From IMG/VR virus record IMGVR_UViG_3300010885_036069, positions 52,662-116,661 of that record: a stretch of 64,000 nucleotides of DNA; one strand, 5' to 3'. Below are positions 4,208 through 25,377 of this stretch, piece after piece (position 1 is the stretch's first letter; every line of letters starts with the position of its first letter). The DNA comes from a virus. The translations under genes and the position numbers were made by a program. The notes under the pieces were generated by a model. That model worked only from the letters and a program-made list of their open reading frames with translations. It was not told the DNA's origin and ran no database searches.

Positions 4208-4285
4208 AGTAGTTAATAGCAGTATGTAGATTCGCCTAAGTTTGACTTACCAAAACAACCTCAATTAGCCCGAAAGGCATTTCCG

Positions 4286-6211: not shown

Positions 6212-6216
6212 TGATC

Positions 6217-7920: not shown

Positions 7921-8059
7921 CATCAATCCCTATCCCTCCGCAGCAAAAGCACGGAGTTTCACCGACCCACCAAACATCGCAGGGTTGACACTCCATGAGG
8001 TCTGATGGGATGCCCATATTGTCGTTGAAGATCACCTTCGGTACTAAAGACTCGCTCAT
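7856..8059 (-). CDS. Small zinc-ribbon-like protein (probably leaderless)
   Basis: CQPC...CFCCG; TAGACT-N6-ATG upstream. Confidence 0.55.
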   Translation of the reverse strand: MSESLVPKVIFNDNMGIPSDLMECQPCDVWWVGETPCFCCGGIGIDVMKKRRSLNGQSPSEGLFQHQ

Positions 8060-8078
8060 GGGGTAAGTCTAGGGAACT

Positions 8079-8113
8079 AAAAAACCCCTCGGCCCGAAGA
8101 CCGAGGGGTTTTT
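8079..8113 (-). terminator. Rho-independent terminator after the major capsid gene (possibly bidirectional)
   Basis: Minus strand CCCCTCGGTC-TTCG-GGCCGAGGGG followed by TTTTTT; A/T tracts on both sides. Confidence 0.9.
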
Positions 8114-8135
8114 CAAAGAATCTAACTAGTCAGAT

Positions 8136-9479: not shown

Positions 9480-9638
9480 TTTTTTTGCTCCTGTAAGAGA
9501 AAGGGGGTGTGTGAGATTTCTAACCTGATTTGACGATTTGACCCGTCGGCTCAGGTAAGCACCCAGCCGCAATATCGCGTCAAGTATTTAATTTATACGC
9601 TCATATCAGTGTTCTGGCGCAACTACTGATGAATGAGG

Positions 9639-9791
9639 CTATTTTACCTTGCTGATGCCTTTTCCAACTTCACGCATAATATCTGTTAGTGCTTGCTGTT
9701 GTTCTTCAATGGTCATTTTTTCATAGCCTTCTGGCAGTTTAAAAAGACCAAATCCAGCAGATTTTTCAGGCTTTTTTTGCGATTTTGGCAT
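9639..9791 (-). CDS. 50-aa hypothetical protein absent from the ORF track (MPKSQKKPEKSAGFGLFKLPEGYEKMTIEEQQQALTDIMREVGKGISKVK)
   Basis: Translated by hand; its start overlaps the end of 9766..10008. Confidence 0.55.
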   Translation of the reverse strand: MPKSQKKPEKSAGFGLFKLPEGYEKMTIEEQQQALTDIMREVGKGISKVK

Positions 9792-10008
9792 TGTACTTTT
9801 TCCTCATGGGTTCAAGGGCAGCGTTAATTTCCAAAGCACGCTCTTCACTAATGCCTAGTGCTTCAAGTGCAGGATTCTTTGGATCAATTATTTTCATAAT
9901 GTCATCAAAGGTGATGTCGTCAACTGGGACATACTCAGGACTGTCGTCCTCGTACTCCTTATTTGGTTGACGAACCTTGAGTCGTGGCGCTCGGGATTTC
10001 TTGCTCAT
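9766..10008 (-). CDS. Small hypothetical protein coupled to the 883-aa gene
   Basis: ATGA overlap with the stop of 10005..12656. Confidence 0.65.
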   Translation of the reverse strand: MSKKSRAPRLKVRQPNKEYEDDSPEYVPVDDITFDDIMKIIDPKNPALEALGISEERALEINAALEPMRKKYNAKIAKKA

Positions 10009-12656
10009 TTGAGAGTTGCTCCTGATAATGCTCCGGATGCTGAGTCTAGACCTTCACCGAAGGGGGCGCGTCTGTGAGCAACCCAGAGAATCGCCTGCAA
10101 CTGAGGAAGGTCAAGAACATCAAGGGCTTTCAGGCCACGCTTTTCTCGAGCTTTGTTGATGACCTCAAGTCGCTCATTAAACCGTTCAAGGGTCTGCTTA
10201 AGCGCAATTTGAAAGATCGGATAGGTTCCAACCGTTCCTTCTGAAACCGAAGTTGGATTTTCAAAGATCGTCTTTCCGGCTTCTCCAGTGATCTTTTTCC
10301 CCGTGCCGATGCTTGACATGTGGACATCAATTGTTGTGTCTCGGCTTTCAAACGGGAACATGATGTTGTTATAGAAAGATCTAACTTTATGCTTTCCGCC
10401 AAGAGCGGAGTCAAGATAATTCGGAGATACATCTTCAGCCGCTAGTGAAAGAGCCTTCCGGAGATTGTCCCAGGACTGCCACTGGACCGCCTCGTATACG
10501 GGTTCACCTTCAAGGATAGTTTTTTCGGTATTCAGGATTACCTGATTGGGTCGCCAATCTTTGCCCTCATGATCAATCGTGAGTTGCGATCCGTATCCAC
10601 GAAGACCAAGAGCGAGTACATCAAGTCCCTTCTCGTCAGATAGGAGTTCCTTTACGCTCTTACCCTTGAAACTGCTGGCATCCACATCTAGGAACTTAGG
10701 AAGATTTGCCGTATTTCCGGAGGCGTATTCCTTCATCTTCGTTGTGTAATCGGCAACTCTCATCGCATCAACGAGGGCGATGAACTCATCGTCAATGACT
10801 CTGTTCTGATCAATGAAGTCAGTCACCCACTTGGCCTGCCATACATTTTGATCCCAAGAACGACTTGGGGAGAGAACTGCCATCATTCCAGCAGCCTGCC
10901 AAGACTCAATTCCTAGTGTCTTGGCCATATCATCAATCATCTTGCGAGCCTCGGGATACCAAGTAAGTCCATCTTCTAGGTCTTGTTCGGTAACAGACTC
11001 AAGAAGGGCATCAAATCTTGCTGCAATGTCGTCTACATTACCGACATCTTTCCCGTAGGTCTTGTTGAGGATTTCAGTCAATTTGTCAATGTGTTCTTGA
11101 CTGATCCTGTCAACGGCAAATTCATCAAATCCGTCAGTTTTTGGCTTGTTGTCACGAATCTGAACTCTAGGTTCTTGCTGAATTTGCTCAATTTCTCTAT
11201 CGCTAGAGGCGATGCGATTAATCTCACGGAGTTCAAAGGTGAGGTCGGCATATTCGCCACCAGTACCACCGCTGCCTAGAAATGCGGTGTCCATTTTCCC
11301 AGCCTCTAGGTCATCAAGATTTGTGATTGCAATTTGATCACGATCTTTCCCGAGCTGAACAGCCTCATTATCACTAACTTCCTGCTTGTCAAAGACATCC
11401 ACAACATCCAAGTAGAGCCACTTGTTACCGGCATCGTCTGCCTCAACCCAGCCGCCAAAGAATGTGCCGATACTTCGGTCGTCTTCCGGTTCGGCAAATC
11501 GACCGTTTTTCAGGCTGTCGCCAATGTATGCATGAAGGATTGCTACGGCCTCCGGCTTTGGATTTTCCCCGTCAAAGAAGTCACTTAAGGAAATTCTGAT
11601 CCCTTGATTCTTCCGAGCAATAGCCCACCCGGAAGTTGGCTGGTTTCCAGACAGCGGGCTAATGGTGATACCACCGTTGGCTTCAATGTGATCAAGAACT
11701 CCACGACGAAAATCCTTAATCTTTGGACTGTTACCGGTGAGGTCTGAAAAGTCTTCATACTTTCCGCTTACGGTTTCAAGAATCTTTTTGAATCTGATCT
11801 TTTCAACATCAGTAATTGGAAAGTTTGCTGCTTCTGTGAGTTTCTTAGAAGGTTTCTTGCCGCCAGCAATTGAGGAGATTACTTCTCTATGGGCAGCCCG
11901 AGTGAGGACTTGGCGTCCAATCATCTGACCACGAGAACCTGCGGGGTTCATGCACCCCTCGCCCTCCATGTTCGTGAACTGCATTGCATTGAGCGTTCCT
12001 GGCGGGCAACGCATAATTCCAAGTTGATCAACAATGATGCGTCCACGACGAACACCCTCAGTTACGCCTACGGACTGACGCTTACTGATCTTGTCAAGTT
12101 TCTTGAATTTAAGTAAATCATATGAATAGTTTTTGCTCTGTTCTTGGTTTTTCCAAGGATGATCAGCAGCAAGCAAATCATTGTCCGCCGTGTACGTACG
12201 ATTCTTTGAGGTTCCCGAAATCAGCAGTTTTAAAAAGTTAGAAACACGAAGTTCTGCTTTTTCAAGTTGTTTAGTTTGTGGTTCGTCTGGATTTAGTCCA
12301 TTTTCAAGACCGCGACCATATACTGAAATTAAAATCTTGGGTGAAGTCTTGCTCCACTCCGGCTTACTTAGTCGAGTCATATTGCGATTATGGACTCGCG
12401 CTCGTTTGGTGAGTTGCTGTCTAGTGATATCCGGAATCTTGATAGAAGGAATACCTGAAGGTTTATTGAGTTCCTTAGGATCTTCAGTTTGATCCATCTT
12501 TGCGGAAATTGGCGCGCTTACGAGGCCGCCATCGGGGAGGGTTTCAATCCCAATGATCGGCTTCTCGGAAAGTTGTTCCCATACCTTTTTGGAGGCCTTA
12601 CGACTTGATTTCTTGCCCCTTTTGCGTGCCGGCTTCCGGTTAACTGGACGAGCCAT
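10005..12656 (-). CDS. 883-aa modular head-operon protein: CPPG tag, central unknown domain, C-terminal possible HhH-glycosylase-like domain
   Basis: RCPPGTLNAMQFTNMEGEGC; GLTWY..A...AAGMMAVLSP...W.QN; KVRSFYNNI...TTIDVHM...QLQAILW. Confidence 0.6.
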   Translation of the reverse strand: MARPVNRKPARKRGKKSSRKASKKVWEQLSEKPIIGIETLPDGGLVSAPISAKMDQTEDPKELNKPSGIPSIKIPDITRQQLTKRARVHNRNMTRLSKPEWSKTSPKILISVYGRGLENGLNPDEPQTKQLEKAELRVSNFLKLLISGTSKNRTYTADNDLLAADHPWKNQEQSKNYSYDLLKFKKLDKISKRQSVGVTEGVRRGRIIVDQLGIMRCPPGTLNAMQFTNMEGEGCMNPAGSRGQMIGRQVLTRAAHREVISSIAGGKKPSKKLTEAANFPITDVEKIRFKKILETVSGKYEDFSDLTGNSPKIKDFRRGVLDHIEANGGITISPLSGNQPTSGWAIARKNQGIRISLSDFFDGENPKPEAVAILHAYIGDSLKNGRFAEPEDDRSIGTFFGGWVEADDAGNKWLYLDVVDVFDKQEVSDNEAVQLGKDRDQIAITNLDDLEAGKMDTAFLGSGGTGGEYADLTFELREINRIASSDREIEQIQQEPRVQIRDNKPKTDGFDEFAVDRISQEHIDKLTEILNKTYGKDVGNVDDIAARFDALLESVTEQDLEDGLTWYPEARKMIDDMAKTLGIESWQAAGMMAVLSPSRSWDQNVWQAKWVTDFIDQNRVIDDEFIALVDAMRVADYTTKMKEYASGNTANLPKFLDVDASSFKGKSVKELLSDEKGLDVLALGLRGYGSQLTIDHEGKDWRPNQVILNTEKTILEGEPVYEAVQWQSWDNLRKALSLAAEDVSPNYLDSALGGKHKVRSFYNNIMFPFESRDTTIDVHMSSIGTGKKITGEAGKTIFENPTSVSEGTVGTYPIFQIALKQTLERFNERLEVINKAREKRGLKALDVLDLPQLQAILWVAHRRAPFGEGLDSASGALSGATLK

Positions 12657-12891
12657 TGCTGCCCGAAGCCCTTTCCTCGTGATTGCGTTTTTCTTCCATC
12701 TTTTTTAGGTAGGCGTTCATAGCCCTAGTGGCAATAGCAGCGCTGCTCAGCCGGAGTGGGCCTATTTCTATGTCATTTACAAAATCACCGGTCAGGGGAT
12801 CAGTAGGTGATCCAACGTTAATCACGGTTGGAAATTGCTGTAGATATTCAGCAAGGTTGTCTGGTTCTTTTGACGGTTCTTTTTCAGCCAT
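12640..12891 (-). CDS. Small hypothetical protein coupled to the 1305-aa gene
   Basis: Overlaps both neighbours; ATG at 12891. Confidence 0.6.
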   Translation of the reverse strand: MAEKEPSKEPDNLAEYLQQFPTVINVGSPTDPLTGDFVNDIEIGPLRLSSAAIATRAMNAYLKKMEEKRNHEERASGSNGSSS

Positions 12892-15800
12892 TTGGCACAA
12901 CCTTAACTTTTAGTCCAATAAGAAGCGATTGCAGGGACTTGCCGCCGCTTGATTCTAGAGCCTTGATTATGTACTCAGTGAGCAACCATGCTCGATCTTC
13001 TTTTTTAAGAAGGCCAGCCTCGCGTGCGGTAAACAGTTCCGCCAGCATTTCAGCCCACATCGTGCTTCCGTAGTCTGAATTGTTATTTATCCAATCTGCG
13101 CTAGCAAGAATAAGCTCATCAAGGACACTGGGATCAACGTCGCTACCTTCAAGCAATTTCTTAATCGGTATACCCATAAAGATGCCGGTGTTTTTTTGCT
13201 CTTTAAGGGTTCTGCCGCCTGCGAATGCTTCTCCCTCAATTTCACGGTTTTGGTTTCTGCCAGTGAAATACAAAGCGTGGTCCCCCCTGAAGGGGGCAAT
13301 CATGGAGTAAGGGACGAAGAGTCCATACGATATCAAAGTTTCTTCTATTTCTTTAGATGCTTGTTGACGCTCAATATCCGAGTTTGAACCCAAGAGTTTT
13401 CCTGAGAGTTCTTCTAACTTGGCAACGAGCTGCCGAGAATCTTGTTTTATCTTCGCATTTTTTTGCCCAATCGGTCCAGCATTTGCTTGAATTGTTTTAG
13501 CAATATCTGACGCAGCCCCCGCCATCATCAACTGCCAAACCATTTGCGGTTCTTCTATTTCCGCTTCTTCAAGAAGGGCAATGTAGTTGCGTTTGAATTC
13601 TTCGTAGTCCTGAACACCCCTACCCCTATCTCTAAGTATTTCTACTGGGTATTTGTCGCTTTTGAATGTTCGATAAACTATTGCGTCATGCAAAACGTGG
13701 GCGACTTCGTGACTTACCGTCAGTTCAGATGTAATCGTTAGAACTTGATCTGAAATTTTTTCTGCGTCATTCGTTTTAGCCTTACGCTTTTTTTCAAGCG
13801 CAACGCCGGCGGCGATGCTTCTATTTTTATCCTTAGTAGAAAATTGATTAGCCGCAATTATTGACATATGGTGATTCAAAATTAGTTGCTTACGCCCAAA
13901 AGCACCGCCAACTGTAGAATAATCCTGTAATGGGCCTTCATCAAGTTGCCCATAAATAACTTCATTTAGAAGTTTTGAAGACTCTGGATGTTCTAATGAC
14001 CAATCAAGTAGTTTCATTGTTTGTGAATAGATTGCGAGCATTTGAGTATCAATTTCATCAACAATGATGTCTTTGATCGCTTCACCAGTTGCCGAGTCTT
14101 CCTCAATTCCTGCCAATTGATCCCTACCCATGAAGTAATTCAACTCAAAACTTTGAAGTTCGGGGAATGCTTTCATCAAAGCGGTTTTGACATCTTCAAC
14201 TGTTTTTATTTCGCCAAATTCTTTTTGAATTTTTTCAACATCAGCAGTCGCTGACTTTGCATATAAAGAAATAACGCGACTTGAAAACATTGAAAATGGG
14301 CTGTCTTTAATTTGCTCTTTATCTGAAAACATCCCATCAAAACTTGAGGGACCATCTTTATCTGAACGTAACCAAGTTCTGCGGATTGACCTCTCAAGCC
14401 GACCAGGAGAAAGTTTTTTGATGCTCTCTATGGCAGAAGTCTTTTCTTCTTCATTTGCTTTTTCAGAAAACTCAACGGCAGGGAATTTCAGAACAACTTT
14501 TTGCACTTTAAGCGTTGTTTTTTTTCGTTGATTGACTCGACCCTTGTCAATCAAGTCCTTTGGGGCGTCCTCCCTTGAAATAGGAGTACCGGAAGTTACT
14601 TGCCCAGCAATTCGATCTTGTCTGTTCTTTTTTTGTTTCTTTTTCTGAACCGGACGATTAAGTCGCATTATCTGCATGCCCTGATTTGCGCTGCGAGCAA
14701 GAGATGGGCGTTCGTTTGTGGTTCCATCTTGAACTATTCCGTCACCGTCGGCATCCACAGCATTGCCATCAAACGGTTCAACGATCTTGCGAATCTTGCG
14801 CGCTTTTCTAATATTTCGGATTTTATTCAGGCTTTTTGCGTGAACATCAGCAAGCATCGCCAGTGATTTTCCGCCAATGGCTTCAAATGATTCTTCAAAA
14901 AGTTGAAGAAGTTTCCAAGGTGAGCCATCAGACTCTTTAAGATACCCAAGAGCCTTGAAGGAGTAGAGTTCCGCAAAAGCCTCGGCAACCGAAACGCTTC
15001 CATACTGAGATCGATCGGACATGAACCTAAGTGCTTCTTTAAGCAATTGCTTCGTTTCCGAAAGGGAAATGTCAATATCCGCCTTTTCAAACATCCGATA
15101 AAGCACAAATGCCGGCATATTGAATGGATTGTCATTGATCTGCAAGGTCGTTGTATTCATGGGCATAAAGGCATTGCCCTGCTTCGGCTTCTTTGAGTAA
15201 AGTCCGCGTCCAGAAATTGGAGCAAAAAGTAGAAAGCCTGGACTCATTCCATAAGACTTCATTTTGTCTAGCATTGAAGATGAAATTGATCGGATTTCAT
15301 CTGGATCTGTAGCGCTTTCAAGCCTTGCGGCATCGTCTGCCCATGAGGTGGAGGCCCATGATCCGCGAGTGATTTCTTGTCGATTTTCAAGGTCTTTAAT
15401 GTTCAGTGCCATTTCACGCCAACCGTTAATAACGAGTTGACGTATAAGTTCATCCGGATCATCAACCCCGAGTTCGGCGTACTGCTTTCTAGCAGCAGCA
15501 ATAGCAGCAGAAGAGGTTTGTCGAGTTTCTCCAAACGCAGTCCAACTCTGAGCATCCCCGCCGATTCCTCGTGCCATGCCGCTGAACCAATGGGCATGCC
15601 CAAACTCATGTTCATGAGTCGCATCAATCATGGCGAGCAGGCCTTGAATTGAGTCGGGTGGAAATTCATCCGCCTGCTGGAAACTCACGTTCCAGGGTCG
15701 TCCCTGATCGTCTGTAGTTCTATTTCTGGTGGTATAGCTCTTCATAATCGTGCCAAGAGCCACACTTACTAAAAATGTGGTTGCATCTCTGTCAATATCA

Positions 15801-16801
15801 AGATTGTTTAAGTTTTCATTCCATGTGTACTCACCACTTAAATCTGTAACAGACATGGCCACGGGTCGTCCCATATGACCAAGTTGACCACCGACTCCAA
15901 GAGCTTTGACCTGAGGATTCTGATTTCCTATTTCTAGATTTGTAAAAGAGGATGCTGTCCTTGGATTGTTATCCCCCCATTGCAGCATCTTGAGCATTTC
16001 AAAACGAACAGCCGCCATTGATGGATCAATTTCATCAAAAAACATTTCTGCTTTCATGGGCGTATCTAGTCGCCCGTTAAACATTTGCTGGGTAATTGGA
16101 AAATTAATAAGAATGCTTCCGGCACCGGTATTTGGGTAGGCCTTGTTGAGGGCAGCCTGAAGATCTAAAATCGTGTCAAGTTTCCCGTATTTTGCTTCCA
16201 GCTCTTTGAAGTTGATCCCTGGATGAGCATCAACAATTTCTCTAACTCTTGGGGAAAAGGTGTTTAGGATTGAGTCGCTAAATTTGATTCCATCAAATAT
16301 TGGATATGTATCTGCGTCCGTATTGGGCCTAAAACTTAAAAACGGGAATATCTTAGAATTGATTGCAAGATTGGCTGACATCTTGAGTCCGACCAATCTA
16401 CTTTTTACGTCTGCAACTTCCTGCTTGGTCATGCGTCGATGCATCGGCACCCTCTTGCCGAAGACATTTGCATTTACAGCAGCGCGAGGATCACCAACTG
16501 CTTCATCAATAGCGGTATCCGTGGGTCTTTCTTTCAGTTTCTTACGTCTGCGCTTCGGCACGCCAACTGGACGATCTGAATATGGCCCCTTACGAGGCAC
16601 TGATTTCGGACCTTTATCACCAGTCAAAGCACTTGGGACGCTAGGGGTCGCTGGTCGCTCAAAAGCGGTCCCCTCTTGGACCGTCCCATCATTGTCCCCA
16701 TCAATGGCATCGGCATCAAATGGTTCAGAAGCACGCGCGACGGAGCGAACTGACCGCCGAGCAGATCCAAGTTTCTGGAGCCTCTTCCCAAATGATTTCA
16801 T
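12884..16801 (-). CDS. 1305-aa protein with two tandem [DxDxDG tag + HExxH zincin metallopeptidase] units
   Basis: HEFGH...YGSVSVAEAFAELY and HEVAH...YGSTMWAEMLAELF; each unit begins with EPFD..A.D.D.DG.VQ.GT..ERP. Confidence 0.75.
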   Translation of the reverse strand: MKSFGKRLQKLGSARRSVRSVARASEPFDADAIDGDNDGTVQEGTAFERPATPSVPSALTGDKGPKSVPRKGPYSDRPVGVPKRRRKKLKERPTDTAIDEAVGDPRAAVNANVFGKRVPMHRRMTKQEVADVKSRLVGLKMSANLAINSKIFPFLSFRPNTDADTYPIFDGIKFSDSILNTFSPRVREIVDAHPGINFKELEAKYGKLDTILDLQAALNKAYPNTGAGSILINFPITQQMFNGRLDTPMKAEMFFDEIDPSMAAVRFEMLKMLQWGDNNPRTASSFTNLEIGNQNPQVKALGVGGQLGHMGRPVAMSVTDLSGEYTWNENLNNLDIDRDATTFLVSVALGTIMKSYTTRNRTTDDQGRPWNVSFQQADEFPPDSIQGLLAMIDATHEHEFGHAHWFSGMARGIGGDAQSWTAFGETRQTSSAAIAAARKQYAELGVDDPDELIRQLVINGWREMALNIKDLENRQEITRGSWASTSWADDAARLESATDPDEIRSISSSMLDKMKSYGMSPGFLLFAPISGRGLYSKKPKQGNAFMPMNTTTLQINDNPFNMPAFVLYRMFEKADIDISLSETKQLLKEALRFMSDRSQYGSVSVAEAFAELYSFKALGYLKESDGSPWKLLQLFEESFEAIGGKSLAMLADVHAKSLNKIRNIRKARKIRKIVEPFDGNAVDADGDGIVQDGTTNERPSLARSANQGMQIMRLNRPVQKKKQKKNRQDRIAGQVTSGTPISREDAPKDLIDKGRVNQRKKTTLKVQKVVLKFPAVEFSEKANEEEKTSAIESIKKLSPGRLERSIRRTWLRSDKDGPSSFDGMFSDKEQIKDSPFSMFSSRVISLYAKSATADVEKIQKEFGEIKTVEDVKTALMKAFPELQSFELNYFMGRDQLAGIEEDSATGEAIKDIIVDEIDTQMLAIYSQTMKLLDWSLEHPESSKLLNEVIYGQLDEGPLQDYSTVGGAFGRKQLILNHHMSIIAANQFSTKDKNRSIAAGVALEKKRKAKTNDAEKISDQVLTITSELTVSHEVAHVLHDAIVYRTFKSDKYPVEILRDRGRGVQDYEEFKRNYIALLEEAEIEEPQMVWQLMMAGAASDIAKTIQANAGPIGQKNAKIKQDSRQLVAKLEELSGKLLGSNSDIERQQASKEIEETLISYGLFVPYSMIAPFRGDHALYFTGRNQNREIEGEAFAGGRTLKEQKNTGIFMGIPIKKLLEGSDVDPSVLDELILASADWINNNSDYGSTMWAEMLAELFTAREAGLLKKEDRAWLLTEYIIKALESSGGKSLQSLLIGLKVKVVPNG

Positions 16802-17121
16802 TGACCTGAATCCCAGCCTCTAAGGATTTCAGCAATTTCATCACGCTTTTCATCGGAGAGTTCAAAGAGATCGCCAGCGGGAGAATAGGTCATGCGAATG
16901 AAGTAATTGAATTGTTCCCAAGCGTTGTGCTTGATTTCGCCAGATCTAAGTTCATCTTTATACTTATTGAGGCGCGCTTCTATGGGTGAGTTCGGGAGCG
17001 GGTAAATATTAGTTTGCCCATCGTCATATATAAAAATTGCTTGAGCATCTTCTTTTTTCTTTTGGGATTTTGGCTTGAAGATGTACAAACCCCAATTCAT
17101 TTTTGTTGGATCTTTAGCCAT
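16798..17121 (-). CDS. 107-aa hypothetical protein coupled to the kinase gene
   Basis: Overlaps the kinase stop and the start of the 1305-aa gene. Confidence 0.65.
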   Translation of the reverse strand: MAKDPTKMNWGLYIFKPKSQKKKEDAQAIFIYDDGQTNIYPLPNSPIEARLNKYKDELRSGEIKHNAWEQFNYFIRMTYSPAGDLFELSDEKRDEIAEILRGWDSGQ

Positions 17122-19795
17122 TGAGGTAACCCTCTTCTTGTAGTTCTTGTATCGCTGATAGGAAGTTCCTAATTCTAGTTACCATCGGATCCGAGGCTTC
17201 GGCTTGATAGGCAAGTGGGTCCATAAGTCGTGCTGCGATCCCAAGCCGTTCGTCGCCACCAAGAATTGATTCTTCCATGGAATCTAAGGCCGCAAATGCT
17301 TTTTCAACTTCAATCCGAGCAAGAAGTCTTTTAACTTGCTGTTCAACTTGATAATCTTCCTCTACCCAGCCCTGAATTATGAATTTACTCCTATTGATGT
17401 CAAGGGGGCTACCCCAGCCACCGGCAGCTCCATTGTCAATGGGCAGTACTGTGGCGGAAACTAGATCGCCATTGAGATCGCGCTTCGCTTCAGTGTAGAG
17501 CCAGTTTTCATGGTGCCTATCGCCATTGCCCAAGATTTCATCCATTAACAGGGTCAATTGCTTGCTGGCTGAGTGAAGGGTTTCTTGGTCGTAAAGAGTA
17601 ATTTCCCCGTTGTCTTCTTGTTCAATGCTGGTGAAGTCATCGCCCCTACCGCCAATTCCATACTTCACAACATCATCAAAATGCTCCATAACTATTGGCA
17701 AGTTGTAGTTAAATGAACCGTTCCGATCGTACATAGCGACTCGGATTCGAGGGGAGTGCATTCCAAGGAGTTGTTGCATGTATCCGCCGTAAATTTCATT
17801 GCCGAACTCCCCCTTAAATGCCGTTGGGGTTTTGACAATATACTTTCTTCCGGTGACCTTATCTTCAACAATATATGTTCCACCATAAACATTGCCGGAT
17901 TGCTGGGCCAGTAGGTTGTTTAGACCTCCAGCGTCACCCAGTGTTCTAAACCTACCGGGATCGGTGGGTCTCAAAGCCCATGCCCCAACAGCGCTGCTTT
18001 CAGTGGTGTCAAGAATAGCATCACGTAAATAGAAATCCGGCACATCATCTAGCGACCCACCGTCAAGCAGGTGTTGAATTGCATCATCAAGGGAACCTAT
18101 GCCAGCAGTCCCAATTAGGACTGGCTCTGGAACATTGAACCCATTTACGACGACATTGCCGTGAGATACTTCAAATCGCGTATCGCTGTATTGAATTACG
18201 TCTGGATCAAGAAGCGCCTTTACCTCTAGCGCTGCTTCAGCGGGAACGCCGGGCAGCGGGTTAGCCGGAGCCTTGGGTTCTTGTGTAGTTATCGGCTGTG
18301 GCTTTGATGGCTTAAAGATTTCACCAACAGCGACAGGACGAGGGCCGGCGGGCTTGTCAACTTCGGGGACGGACTCTGGCTTTATTTCCGGAATGATTTC
18401 GGCGGCTCGTTTGTCAATTTCCTCTTGCTCACGCTGCATGCGATCTGCTTCTTCTCTGGCATCACGAAGATTCTCTTTCTTGATGCGAGCAAGGTCACGG
18501 GCGTATTCGGCATATGAAATTATTGCGCGATCGTGGTCAATGAATGATCCTGTTTCATGGTAATCAAGTGCAGCGCCGTCTTCGCCGTTCCGCCAGCGCT
18601 CTAGGTAGACATTAGCCCTCTGCTCAAGTTCTGCTATGTGATCTTCAATTCTCTTGATGTGTTTCTGAATATCCTCTTCTGATCCGGCCTCAACAAATTT
18701 ATCAATGAGTTCCTTGCGTGCGTTATTTATCTTTCCAAGTTCGTCATTTGCTCTATCTAGTTGATCTCTTTCCTCTTTAGTGAGGTGTTGAAGGATCGCC
18801 GGATATGCATTTTTGCGTTTATTTGATGGCGGTTCCGGAATGTCTTTTGGCTTTGGAGTTTTTGGACCACTAGGTCCGTTTGGACCCATTGGCTTGCCAA
18901 ATTCAACATCCTTCTTGATTTCATCAATTGCCTCACTTGGAGTGAGGTCAGGAGCTTCAATTGAGCGGTGGTTACCCTTCTCGTCAACGACTCCAACAAT
19001 TGAACCATTGCGGGCGACTCTCGCCCTATCCTCGTCGACTACGCGATAGGGGCGTTTTGCGGCCCCTTCTGTCCTGATGATGTAAACCTGTTTGTTGTAA
19101 TTTTTAGCAGCCTCAATTGCCTGCTTTTTCGCTGACTGCTCACTGCCGAAGTTTTGACCAAACTGACTGCCAGGGACATTTCTGCCATTGTTCTTGATGT
19201 TTTGTTTTCTGGCATTATCAGTAGCAGCGCTAGCGGCACGCGCTGGAGGACTGAGAGGTTTTGGTGTTGCTGGACGCTCGGTCTGGATGCGACGACGTTC
19301 TGGAAGTTTTCCAGATGTTGGGCCATCCGGCTTCTCTGGTGAAGGGGTCAGTGAGCGACGACGTTCCCGATCTTCTTGCGGCCTTGCTCGTTCAGCAAAC
19401 CGGTCAAGTATTCCTGCGGCCCGCTCACGAATCCCACGCTTCTTTACGGGGGAGGGAGGGGTGTTCTCGTCAATTCCAGAACCGAGGTTTGGTTTATTGG
19501 CGCCAATAGCAACTCGCTCCGCTGCTCGCGCTCCCTGCGATACTTCTGAAATTGTTTCACGAGCTGCACCTAGGTTGCAGGTGGTTCCCATGGCGTTTGT
19601 CCAGTCGCCACCACGATTCGTTCCAGGTGGGCAGCGAAATCGAGTGGCTTCGGAGCCATCAACATCAACAACTTCAGTCAGAACTCGGGCAGAACTAATT
19701 GCGCGAGCAACTCCACGCTTCTTTCGGCCACTACCAAATCCAAGGACTTTGAAATCTATTTCGGATTGTTTAGGTAGTGGCGCGTTGCTTTTTTT
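17114..19795 (-). CDS. Large protein with C-terminal HipA/PI3K-PI4K-like kinase domain; frame is open upstream of the annotated ATG to 19795
   Basis: YIVK..., NEIY....LLGM.SP, VMEHF, DEILGNGDRHHENWL, PIDNG; 68 open codons upstream of ATG 19591 carry RCPPGTNRGGDWTNA. Confidence 0.75.
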   Translation of the reverse strand, partial: KKSNAPLPKQSEIDFKVLGFGSGRKKRGVARAISSARVLTEVVDVDGSEATRFRCPPGTNRGGDWTNAMGTTCNLGAARETISEVSQGARAAERVAIGANKPNLGSGIDENTPPSPVKKRGIRERAAGILDRFAERARPQEDRERRRSLTPSPEKPDGPTSGKLPERRRIQTERPATPKPLSPPARAASAATDNARKQNIKNNGRNVPGSQFGQNFGSEQSAKKQAIEAAKNYNKQVYIIRTEGAAKRPYRVVDEDRARVARNGSIVGVVDEKGNHRSIEAPDLTPSEAIDEIKKDVEFGKPMGPNGPSGPKTPKPKDIPEPPSNKRKNAYPAILQHLTKEERDQLDRANDELGKINNARKELIDKFVEAGSEEDIQKHIKRIEDHIAELEQRANVYLERWRNGEDGAALDYHETGSFIDHDRAIISYAEYARDLARIKKENLRDAREEADRMQREQEEIDKRAAEIIPEIKPESVPEVDKPAGPRPVAVGEIFKPSKPQPITTQEPKAPANPLPGVPAEAALEVKALLDPDVIQYSDTRFEVSHGNVVVNGFNVPEPVLIGTAGIGSLDDAIQHLLDGGSLDDVPDFYLRDAILDTTESSAVGAWALRPTDPGRFRTLGDAGGLNNLLAQQSGNVYGGTYIVEDKVTGRKYIVKTPTAFKGEFGNEIYGGYMQQLLGMHSPRIRVAMYDRNGSFNYNLPIVMEHFDDVVKYGIGGRGDDFTSIEQEDNGEITLYDQETLHSASKQLTLLMDEILGNGDRHHENWLYTEAKRDLNGDLVSATVLPIDNGAAGGWGSPLDINRSKFIIQGWVEEDYQVEQQVKRLLARIEVEKAFAALDSMEESILGGDERLGIAARLMDPLAYQAEASDPMVTRIRNFLSAIQELQEEGYLNG

Positions 19796-21372
19796 TTAGG
19801 TTGTGGCAGTGCTTTGCCGGAGGGGACCGCAATCCACGCTTCAATATTTTCAGGGCGTGAAGGGGCATTTGCTGAAAGGAAGATTTCAAAAATCCAGCGA
19901 CGAACCATCCGTCGTGATCCATCTTCTCGTTGCACTTCAATGAGCTGAAGTGGACCCTTTACATTCTTGATGTCAGGCTTGAGTTCAAGTTTCCCGTTTG
20001 ATTCTGAAACAAACTTCTCAAGTGCAGATCCATAGCCAAGGTCGGGTTCATTTCTACGAAGCGTTGCCCAACGGCGACTCATTCCTCGGATTGATTCGGG
20101 CGTCGCTTTAGAAGTTCTGCTGAGAGTCAGGCTTGATCCATCGGGAAAGACCATGACAGCAGAACGAGCGCCTGCCGCAAGAAGACCAATTTCCGAGTCG
20201 CCAATCTTGCTTGGATCTGTTGCTCGTCGAATGATTACACCATCAGCAATGTCGGCATTGTTGCGTGTTGAGGCAAGTTTCTCAATGGAAACCATTGAAC
20301 TGAGAACACTTCCATCCCGACGAACGAGGCGTGCTGAACTTGCTTTGTCGGTGGCAACAAGCGGAATGTTGTTTGTCACTGAAGTATTGATTTCCCCAAT
20401 ATTCAATGCTCCAACAGTTGGGATGTCCGGCTTGCGAGTAGCAGTCGCATTAGGAATTACATTTCCTCGGATTTTTGTTCCCTTTAGCGTGTCATCCGCT
20501 TTTGGACCCCTGCCCATGTTTAATGCTTCGGAAGCAGCACCACGAAGGGATGGGAGATCAAATAAGCGAGTGCCGCAAGTAGAAAGACGAGAATTGGTAA
20601 AGCGTCCACCAAATTCAAATCCAGGTGGACAACGATCTTGGCCCTTGCCAATCTTTGGGCGACGGAGATTTACTCTATCTTTTCCGCCACCTGGGGTGAT
20701 AATTTCCCATAGAGTTGAGCGGACAGGTGAGCGAACATCGCTCATGTCTCCGGGTACCGCTAGTGAACCCGCTCCTTGAATGGCCTGAAGTGGCTTTGAT
20801 TGACTCCCCGCCAAGCCGACTTTCTCTGAAATTTCATCACCCTTACTGAGGGCATCTATGGCCGAAAGCGTTGATGCTTTATGTCCGACAAGAGTTTCAG
20901 TTGCCGTCCAGCCGTTAGCCTTCTTTTTCCAGATCCGAATAAGGACTGCGGGATCATCAGGTTTCGCTTCAATTGTGAACTTTGAACCAGGAATTCCAAG
21001 AGTTCCATCGGTCATCACATATTCAACTTGACCCTGTGCGTCGCCGCCGGAAGATCCCCAGCGAACAAAAGAACCCTCGCGAAGGCGCTTTGATTTAGAT
21101 TTGGCTTCTTTCAAAAGTCCTTTTGCTCCAGCGCCACCCGAAGGTGTTCCGCAGGTGCTTCCCAAGGCGTCGGTGAAGTCGCCAGCACCAGCAGTTCCTG
21201 GTGGGCATTTGAATTTGCCATTCTCAACCAATACTCCATTGGATGCAGCAAAACGAGAGCTAACGCTTCCCCCTGAGAGGTCGCCAACCTTTTGTCCGCT
21301 TTCGCCAATTGACGGGCCGAGGATTCCTTTACCAGTTAGTGCCGCGTGAAGCGGATACCGGTTCGATGTCAC
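19756..21372 (-). CDS. Head-operon protein with two CPPG tags and a Tudor-like (Hva1/DUF2945-like) domain
   Basis: KCPPGTAGAGDFTDALGSTC, RCPPGFEFGGRFTNSRLSTC; GSFVRWGSSGG...GQV...VGHKASTL; GAGGAG SD before GTG 21372. Confidence 0.65.
   Translation of the reverse strand: MTSNRYPLHAALTGKGILGPSIGESGQKVGDLSGGSVSSRFAASNGVLVENGKFKCPPGTAGAGDFTDALGSTCGTPSGGAGAKGLLKEAKSKSKRLREGSFVRWGSSGGDAQGQVEYVMTDGTLGIPGSKFTIEAKPDDPAVLIRIWKKKANGWTATETLVGHKASTLSAIDALSKGDEISEKVGLAGSQSKPLQAIQGAGSLAVPGDMSDVRSPVRSTLWEIITPGGGKDRVNLRRPKIGKGQDRCPPGFEFGGRFTNSRLSTCGTRLFDLPSLRGAASEALNMGRGPKADDTLKGTKIRGNVIPNATATRKPDIPTVGALNIGEINTSVTNNIPLVATDKASSARLVRRDGSVLSSMVSIEKLASTRNNADIADGVIIRRATDPSKIGDSEIGLLAAGARSAVMVFPDGSSLTLSRTSKATPESIRGMSRRWATLRRNEPDLGYGSALEKFVSESNGKLELKPDIKNVKGPLQLIEVQREDGSRRMVRRWIFEIFLSANAPSRPENIEAWIAVPSGKALPQPKKKATRHYLNNPK
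19789..19797 (-). other. A9 slippery run, candidate -1 frameshift or transcriptional slippage site
   Basis: CCT AAA AAA AAA GCA (0 frame) versus TAA AAA AAA AGC (-1 frame, continuous with the kinase ORF). Confidence 0.6.
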
Positions 21373-21404
21373 TTTGACTCCTCTTCGCACCTTTGGTGCA
21401 TCCG

Positions 21405-22769
21405 TCAGTTGCCGAGAATGTCGCGAAGGTCTTCTTCGGCGGCAAGAAGTTCAAACTCAATGAGTGCTGCTGCAAACTCATTTTCGGCAGACTTCTCACC
21501 ATCAGCGGCTTCTTCGGCTGGATTGTCCATTGCTTCAGCCTCATCAGTTGCTTCTGGCCAAGTAGTTGGGATCATTTCATCAAGACCAAGATCCTTGGCA
21601 CGCTTGATGATATGAGCCTTTGCGGCTTCCTTGTCCTTTGCACGACCGTAAGCCTGAATGGCATTCTTGAGATCGGCCTCATCCTTGATGGGATAGGAGC
21701 CGTCAGGAAGTGCTTCTCCGGCTTCAACCATTGCTGAGCGCTGATCCTCGGAGTACATACGCTTTACCTCAAGGTCATCGTCATCGGACTTGCCGTTGAC
21801 ATCCTCATCCCAGAGGTATTCGTCATAACCGAGAACTTCACCATTCGGTGAAACGAAGACATCGTAAGACTTGCCGTTGATTCCATGAACCTCAACAGCG
21901 TAAGCCTCGTTGCCCTCAAATTCGCCAACTGAGTATGAAGCAGCCTTTCCTTCAACTGCTTCAAGGGCAAGGCTCACGGCATCCTTGATCCCAATTGTTC
22001 CCTCGGATGCAAGAATCTCTTCCTTTGGAATTCGGAACCAGCCGTCAAGTTCACCATCACCAGTGAAGTACGCTTCAACGGCTTGACCGTCTTTGCGCTC
22101 CACCTGGACGATAAACATGTCGTATTCGTCGGAGTAGCCAGAATCAAGAACTTTGCCATTAAGCGTGTCTTCAGCAAAACCTTCAATTTCAAGGAGGTCA
22201 GGATCTGCACTATTGCTGATACAGCCGCCATTGCAATCGCCACAAGCGCCAGTTTCAAGGCTCTTCATTTCTCGACTGTAGGCGCAGATAAACAGGTCAT
22301 CAGTCATTTCGTCAGACTTCATGCCCATAGATTCCATACGGCGAGCGCGATTGCGCTTGCGCTTTGCTGTGCGCTCAGCAGGCATTTCTTCGCCCATACC
22401 GGCGTAGCCCATGCCCTTTTCTTCTTCTTCCATCATTGGATCAACCTCAGGAAGAACATCTTCTTCAGTTTCTTTGGTTTCAACGGCCATAGCGCCGCAT
22501 TTACCGCAAACTTTGTCGCCTGCTTTGTAGCCACAATCGCCACCAGCAAGACCTTTAGCGCACTTCTTAATCATGCCTTCGGCATCAATCAGAACTGCTG
22601 GCTTTTCTTCCATCATGTCCACTTCTGGCTCCTTGATCTGCATGGCGTCTGTCATGCAAGCATTGGAATTCTTGCACGCCACGCAGGGTGTGGCACGCTT
22701 TTCACCTGATAATCCGCAATTATACTTGTTTGGCGACGGAAGCAGGGGTACTGGCTTTGTGGGTTTCAT
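21405..22769 (-). CDS. Acidic scaffold-like protein with Cys clusters, PepSY-like repeats and a DUF6582-like domain
   Basis: Several CxxC; AL..V.GK......YAVEV....GKSYDVFV..NGEVL; ALPDGSYPI....DLKNAIQAYGRA.....AKAHIIKRA..LG. Confidence 0.6.
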   Translation of the reverse strand: MKPTKPVPLLPSPNKYNCGLSGEKRATPCVACKNSNACMTDAMQIKEPEVDMMEEKPAVLIDAEGMIKKCAKGLAGGDCGYKAGDKVCGKCGAMAVETKETEEDVLPEVDPMMEEEEKGMGYAGMGEEMPAERTAKRKRNRARRMESMGMKSDEMTDDLFICAYSREMKSLETGACGDCNGGCISNSADPDLLEIEGFAEDTLNGKVLDSGYSDEYDMFIVQVERKDGQAVEAYFTGDGELDGWFRIPKEEILASEGTIGIKDAVSLALEAVEGKAASYSVGEFEGNEAYAVEVHGINGKSYDVFVSPNGEVLGYDEYLWDEDVNGKSDDDDLEVKRMYSEDQRSAMVEAGEALPDGSYPIKDEADLKNAIQAYGRAKDKEAAKAHIIKRAKDLGLDEMIPTTWPEATDEAEAMDNPAEEAADGEKSAENEFAAALIEFELLAAEEDLRDILGN

Positions 22770-22770
22770 T

Positions 22771-25377
22771 TTATCCCTTGAGCTGCTTGCGCTGAATGTC
22801 AATTACATGTCCAAGTGCAGTGTCAATTGCACTCTTTGCATCTTCGCTCAAATCTGAAAAATCAGCAACTTGGATGCCTTGATCTGTCACTTCAATTTCA
22901 AGATTGTAGTAATTGGCAATTGGTTCAATGGTGTCACCGATCAAGGGAATGCTTTCACTTGAGGCAACAATAAGACCATCAGATTTCATTTCAACGCTTT
23001 CAATAGGACTTGATGCTCCTACGATTTCTTCAAGCATTGTAATGATTTTACGAATCTTTTCAACATTTCGTCCATTGATTGCTCGACCGGCTTTAATGTC
23101 AATTTCATCAACGAGGCCCTTGAGTGAGTCCCCTAGAAGGTCGGCACCCTCGCTGCCATGATCGCAATTGCAGTCTTCTTTGGCCAACTCAACTGAATGG
23201 AAGTTCATTCCACCCATATCGTCTTCACCTTCATGCTCCCAAGCATTTTCGTCACGAAGCATGCCAACGAAGCGAGGCTCAGCCTGACAGAACATCTTCA
23301 GTTCCTTGACTGCCTCGCCCATAGAAACATCCATGTCGTCTTCTTCGCCAAGGAAGTCCATACCTTTTCCGGCAGGATTTGGCTTAAGTTTGCGAAGACG
23401 ATCATTGAAGTCGCTGTCAGAAAGGATTGAACCGCGAACAACATTTTTGAGCTTGCGACGGCAATTCTTCATCCCTGGGTGATGACAGCCCTCATTGGGC
23501 CAAAGGCCAGTTGTTTCATGGTGAAGCCATGCACAGATGTTATTCAGAGGGTAAAGCTCAGGATGATCGGCAAGGATCACACGACAACGACGGAAACCGC
23601 CCTCACGTCGCATGATTGGACGCCAATAACGAAGAAGTCGTTCAAGGTTTCCTCGACGAGGACCGTACCCACGAAGGACATCACCAGTCACTCGCTCTTG
23701 AGGAAGGGTGTCTGGAATAGCATTTGCCCCTGTTGGGACTCGGCTTGTTGCTCGGCCAGAGGCATTTGCCAGTGACTGCAACTGTGAAGCATTTGGTGCT
23801 TTGATGTCCATTTCGTATCCTAACGGAGCGAAGAGAATTTCTTCTGATTTGATTTGATCACCACATAAACCTTTTCCGCCACATCCACACCCACAACCCT
23901 TTTCGGTTGACATAGCGGCCATCATGCCACCGGTTTCATCATCTTCATTTGAAGCGGATGGGGTCTTTTCTTCGGTAATTGGCCCGCCTGAAATCCAAGC
24001 ATCGCATGTACGGGCCGCTGCACACTTGAAGTCAAATGCTTCGCAATAACCAAGATCTCCAGCCTCAATGACATCAACAGCATCATTTCCAGATTCGTTT
24101 CCAAGGCCATCCTCAATGCATGAGAGCATCCGCTTGGTCTGGATAAAGGCGGCGCAGTTGCCACACCGTTGTTTCTTGGCTTCATCTTGTGAAACATCCC
24201 AACGGTCAGCCTTTTTCATCCAGAACTTTGAATTTGGTTCTGCCGGATTCAGGGGACCGTAGCCAGCAGTTTCAATTGCATTCTGGCGATTTTTGATGTT
24301 TACAGCAATACTTGATGTCGCTGGGGGACAAGAGCCGCCCACTTTATCCTCATCGTCGGAATTGCCATTGTACTCATATGGGTTTTCATTATCCCCATCA
24401 TCTTCAGTATCGTCGTTGTACTCGTAGTCACCAAGTTCATCACTATCGGCAAAACTGGTGTAGTTGGAGTAAGTGACATCGCCTTTTGTATTTTCGTTTT
24501 CAGCAGACTTGCCTTCAAGTTTTGCAATTTCTTCGCGAATCACATTCTTCATGTAGGCCTCGCCTCGCGATCCCACAGCAAGCCACTTCATCTGAGCGAC
24601 AACGCCCGGAAGCAAGAAGTCACCGCGATGGCGAGCAACCCAAGCCTCACGGAGTTCTAAGGCATTGATTTCCATTTGACTGTTAGTTGTTCCGCCTCGA
24701 CGGTATAAGGGGAGCAACTTGGCGTACTGGTCATTTCCACGAATATTCCCACCCTTGCGCCAAATGGATGGGTACTTTTCTTTGACCATTTCAGCAAAAC
24801 TCGGGTCAAATGTTTCCCACTTACTCTCTCGGAATGAGGTGAGTTGATCTTCCTTGGCGTCTTGCTTCTCTGACTTGATTGAAATTGTTGCGGTTAGTTG
24901 ATTTGCACCATGCAGAACTGGGGAAACTTCGTAAAGTTCTACTTCCTTGAGCATGTTTGCTTGGCGCTCTGGGGAGTAAATGGAGTCAAGGGTCTTATAG
25001 CCGATGCTCCACTCTTGTTCTTCCCCAAAAAAGAGGATGCTGTGGAATGCCTCGCGCCCGCGCTCTGAGCGGAGATTAAATTGAACCTTTGCAAATAGCC
25101 CACCGACTCCGGCAGATTTCATCTTGCCAGGAAGACGAGGGTCGGACGGGCCTACTTCATAGATGTCAAGAACTTTGCCAATTGGCTGATTCCAGTCATG
25201 ACCCCAAACAACCCGAGGCTTACGACGCTTGAGTGATGAGGTAAATGCACCGGGAACAACAATGTCCCCCACGCTGTCCTTATTACCAACAGCGGCAACA
25301 AAGCATTCAACAAGGCCTTCGGCTTCATCAATGCTTAGTTGGCCTGACATAGCCTTGAACTCAAGTTTATTGGTCAA
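22771..25377 (-). CDS. HK97-type (S78) prohead protease with long multidomain C-terminal extension
   Basis: DSVGDIVVPGAF, VWGHDW..PIG, EWSIGY, LYEVSPVL.GAN; GGAG SD before TTG. Confidence 0.9.
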   Translation of the reverse strand: MTNKLEFKAMSGQLSIDEAEGLVECFVAAVGNKDSVGDIVVPGAFTSSLKRRKPRVVWGHDWNQPIGKVLDIYEVGPSDPRLPGKMKSAGVGGLFAKVQFNLRSERGREAFHSILFFGEEQEWSIGYKTLDSIYSPERQANMLKEVELYEVSPVLHGANQLTATISIKSEKQDAKEDQLTSFRESKWETFDPSFAEMVKEKYPSIWRKGGNIRGNDQYAKLLPLYRRGGTTNSQMEINALELREAWVARHRGDFLLPGVVAQMKWLAVGSRGEAYMKNVIREEIAKLEGKSAENENTKGDVTYSNYTSFADSDELGDYEYNDDTEDDGDNENPYEYNGNSDDEDKVGGSCPPATSSIAVNIKNRQNAIETAGYGPLNPAEPNSKFWMKKADRWDVSQDEAKKQRCGNCAAFIQTKRMLSCIEDGLGNESGNDAVDVIEAGDLGYCEAFDFKCAAARTCDAWISGGPITEEKTPSASNEDDETGGMMAAMSTEKGCGCGCGGKGLCGDQIKSEEILFAPLGYEMDIKAPNASQLQSLANASGRATSRVPTGANAIPDTLPQERVTGDVLRGYGPRRGNLERLLRYWRPIMRREGGFRRCRVILADHPELYPLNNICAWLHHETTGLWPNEGCHHPGMKNCRRKLKNVVRGSILSDSDFNDRLRKLKPNPAGKGMDFLGEEDDMDVSMGEAVKELKMFCQAEPRFVGMLRDENAWEHEGEDDMGGMNFHSVELAKEDCNCDHGSEGADLLGDSLKGLVDEIDIKAGRAINGRNVEKIRKIITMLEEIVGASSPIESVEMKSDGLIVASSESIPLIGDTIEPIANYYNLEIEVTDQGIQVADFSDLSEDAKSAIDTALGHVIDIQRKQLKG

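Follow-up and report, generated by a model that had tools for sequence, protein, structure and literature searches.

Phage-type polyvalent proteins are already a known concept: Iyer et al. 2017 (PMC5512222) describe large multi-domain proteins encoded beside virion genes, in which kinases, zincin-like peptidases, nucleic-acid enzymes and uncharacterised domains are mixed, and predict that they are carried by the virus particle and take effect as infection begins. In the present study we have analysed a window of 64,000 nucleotides, the right-hand 64 kb of the single contig (116,661 bp) that forms the IMG/VR virus record IMGVR_UViG_3300010885_036069, in which about 13 kb of tightly coupled genes separate the prohead protease gene from the gene of an HK97-type capsid protein. 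This block is very probably a phage-type polyvalent-protein locus placed in the head operon of an uncultured freshwater actinophage, since the domain repertoire, the size of the proteins and the position by virion genes all point to that class. To judge from our searches and Pfam, the features that are new with respect to the class as published are a pair of short shared tags with their wide reach, the placement between protease and capsid, and a conserved run of nine adenines (A9) at which a head-module protein, p544, is probably fused to a kinase, p825. In the literature, searched without supplementary files, no paper was found that describes either tag or a frameshifted polyvalent protein.

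In the myophage P1, which provides an experimental precedent, DarA-Hdf pairs are found as small anchor proteins on the inner capsid surface and are needed to load the very large DarB and other Dar proteins, which enter during capsid morphogenesis and leave with the DNA (PMC12810830). The likeness that we propose to this system (DarA, Hdf, DarB, DdrA, DdrB and Ulx) is that of internal head proteins which would be loaded and then ejected with the DNA; it differs in that the model of p544 gave no match to Dar proteins in the PDB search, and in its host, which is here an actinobacterium. We know of no P1 counterpart to the tags or to the frameshift. The internal proteins IPI-III and Alt of T4 and the ejection proteins of SPN3US and phiKZ carry short N-terminal signals that direct them to the prohead core and are trimmed by the prohead protease. 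The T4 signals have about 10 residues and are removed, whereas the modules described here have about 20-90 residues and are sometimes internal. In the MuF-toxin fusions of temperate phages, head-module proteins bear variable C-terminal toxic or enzymatic domains; here, in contrast, MuF is on the portal without cargo, and a comparison by hhalign of p544 with the MuF domain of its own portal gave no link. Finally, in Gag/Gag-Pol, T7 gene 10A/10B and the tail chaperones G/GT a minority of the copies of an abundant structural or assembly protein is extended through a -1 slip at the 3' end of its gene. The difference is that the extension would here consist of a tag and a kinase in a head operon, and that the site is a plain A9 where transcriptional slippage is possible.

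Layout of the head operon and its two tags

All genes of the head operon are on the minus strand, in the order portal with MuF domain, protease, the block and capsid. The proteins encoded between protease and capsid, named here by their length, have 465, 544, 825, 107, 1305, 86, 883 and 80 amino acids (aa), and most gene junctions in the block overlap by 4-32 nt. The features, in the order of transcription, are:

25471..27690, minus strand: portal with C-terminal MuF domain, 739 aa (Pfam, PHROG 2662)
22771..25377, minus strand: prohead serine protease, 868 aa, made of aa 1-200 and a 670-aa mosaic C-terminal extension (Pfam, phrog_80)
21405..22802, minus strand: p465, acidic (isoelectric point, pI, 4.34) and Cys-rich, with no Pfam family
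19756..21390, minus strand: p544, head-module protein with a disordered basic N-terminal half holding two copies of tag 1 and a folded domain at aa 322-514 (homologues, AlphaFold 2 model)
17114..19591, minus strand: p825 as annotated, with a basic linker, a conserved domain (aa ~130-230), a coiled coil and a C-terminal predicted atypical kinase domain (aa ~453-825) (Pfam, motifs); probably made as a fusion of ~1,425 aa with p544
16798..17121, minus strand: p107, small open reading frame (ORF) after the kinase gene (conserved neighbour)
12884..16801, minus strand: p1305, a tandem pair of modules, both bearing tag 2, a basic stretch and a long-insert HExxH domain (BLASTP, homologues)
12640..12900, minus strand: p86, small ORF overlapping both neighbours (gene calls)
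10005..12656, minus strand: p883, with a basic leader, an 'ARVxNFL' domain (aa 82-169), tag 1 (aa 217-235) and DUF7178 with an insert (aa ~541-791) (Pfam, ESM Atlas)
9766..10008, minus strand: p80, small ORF before the capsid gene (gene calls)
8136..9572, minus strand: HK97-type major capsid protein with an N-terminal delta-like region (Pfam, phrog_10)

The HK97-type head module (portal, S78 protease and capsid) is supported by Pfam matches over the cut-off. In the 739-aa protein Phage_portal (2e-51, aa 57-379) and Phage_Mu_F (8.9e-8, aa 645-735) are present together, and PHROG 2662, 'portal protein', covers aa 33-737 (1.8e-94). The protease matches Peptidase_S78 (3e-13) and phrog_80 (1.5e-28), and the capsid protein Phage_capsid (5.8e-42) and phrog_10 (1.4e-63). 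An earlier note on this DNA had described about 13 kb of co-oriented genes between prohead protease and capsid, a MuF domain fused to the portal with no toxin, and small ORFs following the large genes; gene coordinates, Pfam and PHROGs confirm the first, the portal protein carries no cargo, and the small ORFs are found 3' of p825, p1305 and p883. The architecture proposed there, a leader followed by one shared tag and an enzyme domain, could be kept in part: the tags recur and the leaders of the large proteins are basic (pI 9.9-11.0, 13-23% Lys plus Arg), but the tags are two rather than one and p544 is without an enzyme domain.

Tag 1 follows the pattern C-P-x-G-x14-C and occurs in four copies, while tag 2 is an EF-hand-like DxDxDG...ERP loop in two copies:

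21151..21207, minus strand: tag 1 copy, p544 aa 62-80 (pattern, hidden Markov model, HMM)
20575..20631, minus strand: tag 1 copy, p544 aa 254-272, in the family-wide RCPxGxxxGGRFT...C form (invariant residues)
19577..19633, minus strand: tag 1 copy lying across the annotated ATG of p825 (pattern, HMM)
11952..12008, minus strand: tag 1 copy, p883 aa 217-235 (pattern, HMM)
16628..16786, minus strand: tag 2 copy 1 in p1305, the EPFDADAIDGDNDGTVQEGTAFERP region (hmmsearch 3e-21; phrog_7924 2.2e-6)
14681..14848, minus strand: tag 2 copy 2 in p1305 (hmmsearch 4.8e-19)

In the six-frame ORFs of the whole 116.7-kb genome the pattern CP.G.{14}C was found four times, every time inside the block, and 200 residue shuffles gave a mean of 0.24 occurrences with a maximum of 3. 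Residues R253, C254, P255, G257 and C272 of p544 are invariant in 26 sequences. The position of the tag within its protein had to be revised at one place, as the fourth CPPG tag straddles and precedes the annotated start of p825.

The tags are also shared beyond this genome. An HMM of tag 1, built with one false positive of the regular expression from the Cys-rich part of p465, matched 57 ORFs from 43 sources (the loci fetched as described below and the genome itself), and a profile of 42 rows was built without that sequence. Searched against 1.84 billion representatives, this profile reached 405 clusters at E<=1e-3, of which 269 also lie within E<=1e-10. The proteins of the best 150 of the 405 clusters range from 87 to 4,629 aa (median 1,006 aa; 20 of at least 2,000 aa), and the tag lies near the N-terminus, usually at residues 11-103, about 120-230 or about 200-280. 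The HMM of tag 2 matched 56 ORFs from 32 sources; three further ORFs, located beyond the window, gave weak matches (E 3e-5 to 1e-3) that are short DxDxDG loops and that we do not regard as tags. Neither tag matched a Pfam family. Loose single-linkage clustering of the cargo segments downstream of the tags gives 7 groups with tag 1 and 11 with tag 2. In some relatives large tag 2 ORFs of 1,100-2,100 aa are located after the capsid gene (L005:11608-17070, L010:2301-8738, L012:12417-15932), so that tagged proteins are not restricted to the interval between protease and capsid.

Cargo domains in related phages and in the block

The capsid protein has 286 relatives in IMG/VR, of which 80, with 68-81% identity, were retained as loci; the statistics of the slot, that is, the region upstream of the capsid gene, were taken from the 50 loci with at least 9.8 kb of it. 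All 50 have an ORF of at least 1,000 aa in the slot, with a median for the largest of 1,508 aa, 10 loci reaching at least 2,000 aa and a maximum above 3,247 aa, and ORFs of at least 500 aa take up a median of 80% of the 10 kb before the capsid gene. Pfam searches of the 26 largest slot ORFs gave Zeta_toxin (5), NUDIX (3), DUF3721 (3), pentapeptide repeats (2), DnaJ (2), Sigma70_r4 (2), MPTase-PolyVal (1; PF18818, 8e-43) and ArdcN (1; 6.4e-25). The same tags stand before varying enzyme domains, as the earlier note had predicted for relatives of this phage. In a single ORF (L071:2854-9720) that ends just before the capsid gene the order is DUF3721, tag 2, Zeta_toxin, pentapeptide, ArdC-N and MPTase-PolyVal.

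The comparison with the proteins of Iyer et al. (PMC5512222) can be made point by point. As in that class, disparate domains are joined in one polypeptide (p883, the probable p544-p825 fusion, p1305 and the L071 ORF), the block adjoins virion genes, lying between S78 protease and capsid, and a relative holds in the same slot the diagnostic pair ArdC-N and MPTase-PolyVal. The differences are the two shared modules without a Pfam family, the MuF domain borne by the portal and not by the cargo, the position between protease and capsid, and the expression of one protein through what is probably a conserved A9 slip. In addition, the kinase described in the main text of Iyer et al. is a truncated one of the Ser/Thr/Tyr type, whereas p825 resembles PI3K/HipA.

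The protein p1305 arose by tandem duplication of a module of ~650 aa, its halves aligning over their full length (BLASTP E 6e-23, 20% identity). Both halves start with a basic stretch, together with the peptide EPFD..A.D.D.DG.VQ.GT..ERP, and have a single HExxH motif:

15596..15610, minus strand: HExxH motif 1, p1305 aa 398-402 (motif)
13697..13711, minus strand: HExxH motif 2, p1305 aa 1031-1035 (motif)

Only six homologues were found among 5.8 billion proteins, all full-length and 56-95% identical. In these the HEHEFGHAHW peptide and the distal YGSVSVAEAFAELYS are largely invariant, the HExxH of the first module being conserved in all 7 sequences, and p1305 has a distal AExxAE motif. Polyvalent-protein peptidases have a long insert between the two zincin helices (PMC5512222), and the motif pattern of p1305 fits a predicted zincin with a long insert between its two helices. 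No Pfam match and, with the single sequence, no meaningful PDB match was obtained. In the ESM Atlas p1305 reached only unnamed clusters at 0.90, those at 0.89 leading to Peptidase_M90, which is present in 20% of their members. No relatives of p1305 were found in viral contigs, and in the capsid-related loci it was matched through the tag only. Of the two HExxH zincins of the earlier note, both motifs are present, and the modules are candidate zincins judged by these motifs.

The C-terminal half of p883 belongs to DUF7178, a virus-only family (6e-19; second half of DUF7178, 8.2e-5; ESM Atlas 0.96). Stand-alone members of this family in mycobacteriophages, a Microbacterium phage and a cyanophage have been labelled 'glycosylase' or 'N-glycosylase/DNA lyase' by their depositors, and K258 and D278, 20 residues apart, are invariant in 7 sequences. 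PDB searches with the single sequence and with a profile gave no match, neither to a glycosylase nor to any other protein. The helix-hairpin-helix glycosylase-like domain supposed earlier thus becomes a DUF7178 domain that may represent a DNA glycosylase/lyase, as the labels of its homologues suggest. By BLAST, 30 loci encode homologues of the N-terminal domain of p883, and the ARVxNFL domain family to which it belongs is present in 63-64 of the 80 loci, in proteins of 211-2,770 aa encoded mostly directly upstream of the capsid gene.

The small proteins p86, p80 and p107 have no homologue in the 80 capsid-related loci. No family was found for p86 and p80, nor for p107 in Pfam, PHROG and a further family search.

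The A9 junction between p544 and p825

The BLAST matches of the block proteins form a mosaic over the 80 loci, homologues of p544 being present in 37 of them. Its AlphaFold 2 model has a predicted local distance difference test score (pLDDT) of 77-93 over aa 322-514 and below 50 over aa 1-321. The sole named structural neighbours of the folded domain are predicted viral proteins in BFVD labelled 'Minor capsid protein' (E 8.7e-5 to 7e-3); Foldseek against the PDB gave no match at E<=1e-3, and no PHROG family was assigned except for one member at E 0.0072. An identity as JAMM/MPN (Z 5.6, the best match) or RadC (Z 4.0), both from VIA wide, was rejected, the scores being within the range of common arrangements. 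In 25 relatives the p544-like protein has ~690 aa, with a C-terminal extension homologous to the kinase domain of p825 (hhalign 95.9%, E 5.5e-9). In these extensions (for instance that of the protein at L015:2066-4132) DQRxR is found at the place of the DRHxxN of p825, and the extension may be a pseudokinase conserved in the head module. Judged from these motifs, the kinase-like domain looks degenerate in many relatives and intact here.

In p825 itself the residues K587, D691-R692-H693, N696 and D719-N720-G721 are invariant in 10 sequences and match the ATP-binding Lys, the catalytic loop DRHxxN and the metal-binding DxG motif of kinases. Pfam gave PI3_PI4_kinase (PF00454) at 5.6e-4 (20.3 bits, cut-off 27.1) and HipA_2 (PF20613) at 0.0089 (15.7 bits, cut-off 27); PI3_PI4_kinase appears at E<=0.01 in 7 of the 10 members of the p825 family (best 2.1e-4) and in 3 of 38 sampled tag-bearing proteins (best 8.1e-7). 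These weak but consistent signals point to a predicted active atypical kinase, with PI3_PI4 and HipA as its possible families. The HipA/PI3K-like kinase of the earlier note is borne out by its motifs and not by the Pfam score, and its role as swapped cargo had to be given up, the domain being a conserved part of the p544-like family. The kinase domain was matched in 8 of the 80 loci (BLAST); no relatives were found in viral contigs with p825 as query, and only one distant locus with the p825 alignment.

The two genes meet at the following features:

19789..19797, minus strand: candidate A9 slip site, CCT AAA AAA AAA GCA in the p544 frame (sole A9 in the window)
19592..19795, minus strand: 68 start-less codons of the -1 frame, which hold the leader together with the beginning of the p825 tag (frame layout)

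The frame of p825 is open for 68 codons 5' of its annotated ATG, back to a TAA that overlaps the A9, and in these codons there is no ATG, GTG or TTG. The stretch translates to ...RFRCPPGTNRGGDWTNA|MGTTC at the p825 ATG. The p544 frame stops 11 codons beyond the A9, the run contains the slippery A AAA AAA, and the -1 frame opens precisely there; a ribosomal slip of -1, or one added A in the mRNA, leads to a p544-p825 fusion of ~1,425 aa. The run is found without insertion or deletion in contigs from 4 runs of 4 studies, one of them a strain with five substitutions in the stretch of 1 kb.

Three metagenome contigs with a p825-type kinase and p544 (L091, L092 and L093) keep the A9 at the same junction. 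In all three the 0 frame stops one codon past the run, the -1 frame opens exactly at it, and the stretch from the run to the ATG is readable in the -1 frame only. Over 67 aligned codons of this stretch, comparison with L091 shows 28 identical, 23 with synonymous changes only and 16 with a changed residue. From this layout and its conservation we consider, with good confidence, that recoding at the A9 makes the p544-p825 fusion, and the kinase-like domain lying in frame in the p544-like proteins of relatives was counted toward this recoding. The kinase would thereby not be translated from its annotated ATG; it would be made through a slip near the end of p544, so that a few copies of an abundant head-module protein would carry the tag and the kinase, as Gag carries Pol.

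The support is not uniform. A hairpin 5 nt past the A9 has z -2.77 against shuffles in the window; the corresponding value in L091 (-0.59) is not better than shuffles, covariation support is absent (0 compensatory pairs), and one A9 per 64 kb is unremarkable by itself, 2.84 being expected. Because the hairpin is poor in L091 and without covariation, transcriptional slippage is as likely as ribosomal frameshifting at this site.

Alternatively, p544 and p825 could be separate proteins, p825 being translated from an ATA that overlaps the p544 TAG stop by termination-reinitiation, or from the annotated ATG, with an incidental A9. For this speak the more distant relatives, in which the homologous genes are separate and have ATG starts (L003 begins MNKSEVEYK, L053 has an ATG at 2105), the upstream starts that gene callers gave to some homologues (P0010, P0014, P0015), the sequence ATAG at 19756-19759, which resembles an ATGA coupling site, and the lack of conservation of the 3' hairpin. 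In L091-L093, however, the ATA overlaps no stop, since the 0 frame ends one codon past the A9, and the residues between the A9 and the ATA are conserved although readable in the -1 frame only; in both lineages the opening of the -1 frame coincides with the run, and the annotated ATG sits within the invariant tag. We therefore regard separate translation as improbable, and recoding at the A9 remains our preferred explanation.

Divergence between the window and L092/L093 is uneven along the operon, identity being 82% for p465 and p544, 59-61% for p1305, 45-54% for p825 (a range that holds over L091-L093) and 39-59% for p107. The latter follows the kinase gene in L091 (59%) and L092 (39%) and diverges alongside it, the kinase and its small neighbour being the fastest-evolving genes of the operon.

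Proposed packaging, rival explanations and the surrounding genome

We propose that the tag modules and basic leaders would recruit proteins into the prohead during assembly, paralleling the P1 Dar and T4 internal proteins, with p544 and the ARVxNFL domain as possible anchors and the tagged proteins as cargo. The cargo would comprise the atypical PI3K/HipA-like kinase, two zincin-like modules and the DUF7178 domain, and the zincin-like modules may process proteins of the block or cut host targets. The tagged proteins would leave the head along with the DNA and have an early function in the host. For the proteins of the block we infer loading, ejection and cleavage by the S78 protease, and we incline, if only slightly, towards their packaging and injection. 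The whole explanation, in which tagged polyvalent cargo of the head operon is packaged and injected and the kinase is made through the A9, appears to us more probable than not. A stronger version is more speculative: tag 1, a two-cysteine module, and the calcium-loop-like tag 2 (at least 405 clusters, proteins of up to 4,629 aa) might form a general capsid-addressing code of these actinophages that loads arbitrary cargo into HK97-type heads, the A9 dosing a kinase onto an internal head protein much as Gag-Pol doses polymerase, so that a ready-made signalling enzyme would be injected in a fixed small copy number, and this we put forward only tentatively.

Several observations weigh against these proposals. 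The hallmark domains MPTase-PolyVal and ArdcN were not found by Pfam in the window itself, no Pfam family was found in the giant relatives L003, L004, L013 and L025, nor in L044, and the systematic sample of 38 tag-bearing proteins gave few matches, namely PI3_PI4_kinase (3) and DUF3721, a 2H phosphoesterase and sigma-70 region 4 (1 each), at most 7 member matches over five families in all, with no Pfam family in the member P0021. The cultured capsid relatives fetched for comparison, Gordonia phage Gray and Brevibacterium phage Cantare, are without tag 1. The AlphaFold 2 model of p1305, from an alignment of 7 rows, is unusable (pLDDT 42.3), so that 'zincin' rests on motifs. As for the kinase, its matches are under the Pfam cut-offs, CtkA at E 0.14 was the sole match of its profile in the PDB, the single sequence gave nothing significant there, and the kinase-like domain is conserved and not swapped.

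The conservation of part of the block is also what would be expected if the large proteins were head-assembly or internal structural proteins (scaffold, core or DNA-condensing), or ordinary late or early enzymes, whose modules bind metal or DNA and have no addressing function. Thus p544, the ARVxNFL family with its 63-64 loci and the kinase-like domain form a conserved core and not a variable cargo, the leaders are basic and predicted to be disordered, like those of DNA-binding internal proteins, and the fold of p544 resembles the BFVD entries labelled as minor capsid proteins; the capsid protein has its own long N-terminal region, which leaves assembly roles for its neighbours open. In relatives, however, the slot contains, behind the same tags, domains that would have no meaning as structural components (ArdC-N with MPTase, Zeta toxin, NUDIX, DnaJ, sigma-70 region 4 and pentapeptide repeats) and that correspond to the domain set of polyvalent proteins (PMC5512222). 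Moreover, the kinase and p107 diverge much faster than p465 and p544 in the same contigs. A purely structural or ordinary enzymatic role is accordingly an unlikely explanation. Still less probable is a polymorphic toxin-immunity array directed against competing bacteria or superinfecting phages, with p107, p86 and p80 as immunity proteins, even though each of three large genes is trailed by a small ORF, p107 stays by the kinase gene in L091 and L092 and diverges together with it, and Zeta-toxin domains are present in relatives. The three small proteins are without homologues in the capsid-related loci, the family searches found no secretion or immunity family, and the genes are inside a lytic head operon beside portal, protease and capsid. 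Tagged cargo of the polyvalent type is thus the reading that we retain.

If the tags are loading signals, effectors delivered by virions could be recognised in metagenomes by a simple rule at the sequence level, and the tags would be a candidate handle to pack foreign proteins into HK97-type capsids. At the A9 junction there would be a compact and conserved case of recoding, open to direct test, by which the dose of an enzyme on a head-module protein is set. Given the few Pfam families found in relatives, most of the cargo is without a known family, which makes the locus a source of new activities in host takeover or anti-defence. In lakes, freshwater actinobacteria belong to the most abundant bacteria, and their phages are almost all uncultured.

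Two WhiB genes on the genome (C1:1888-2079, plus strand, and 34062-34265, minus strand; 4.2e-15 and 5.8e-15) point to an actinobacterial host, WhiB genes being the usual hallmark of actinobacteriophages. Metagenome runs from freshwater and rivers contain near-identical sequence (20 rows, 12 studies), and CheckV estimates the completeness of the 116,661-bp record at 79%. The capsid protein shares 48-49% identity with its counterparts in Gordonia Bendigovirus phages and Brevibacterium phage Cantare. The whole block had no match by megablast among GenBank phages. In Gordonia phage Gray (L001, 6739-19841) and in Cantare (L002, 6713-12118) an RNA ligase, a VIP2-like ADP-ribosyltransferase and proteins of ~1,000 aa are encoded between portal and protease, a slot that is analogous but on the opposite side of the protease.

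Some minor features of the operon deserve mention. The protein p465, with no homologue in the 80 capsid-related loci, has at aa 325-419 a weak match to the C-terminus of phrog_80 (E 0.0024) and is a possible scaffold or assembly factor. In the extension of the protease, aa 176-313 and 343-471 correspond in relatives to separate ORFs after the capsid gene, which are Cys-rich and 60-74% identical, and aa 551-738 to a separate ORF of ~200 aa ahead of the p544-like gene; the 868-aa protein may be a self-processed polyprotein. Directly to the left of the window (L083, genome 36000-55900), a histone-deacetylase-family gene (3659-4738, plus strand, 8e-21) is followed by ORFs of 1,616 aa (7702-12552, plus strand) and 1,164 aa (12555-16049, plus strand) with no Pfam family and with weak DxDxDG-loop matches to the tag 2 HMM, which may represent a second set of cargo-like proteins outside the head operon.

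Scans for promoters and terminators did not rise above shuffles (17 vs 20.5 and 30 vs 22.4). At 8086-8100 (minus strand), 36 nt past the stop of the capsid gene, there is a terminator-like hairpin with a T-run, which fits the end of an operon. The head operon is flanked in the window by genes for a class II ribonucleotide reductase (4286-6211, plus strand), a PhyH-family dioxygenase (6196-7008, plus strand) and an N6/N4 DNA methylase (3038-3796, minus strand).

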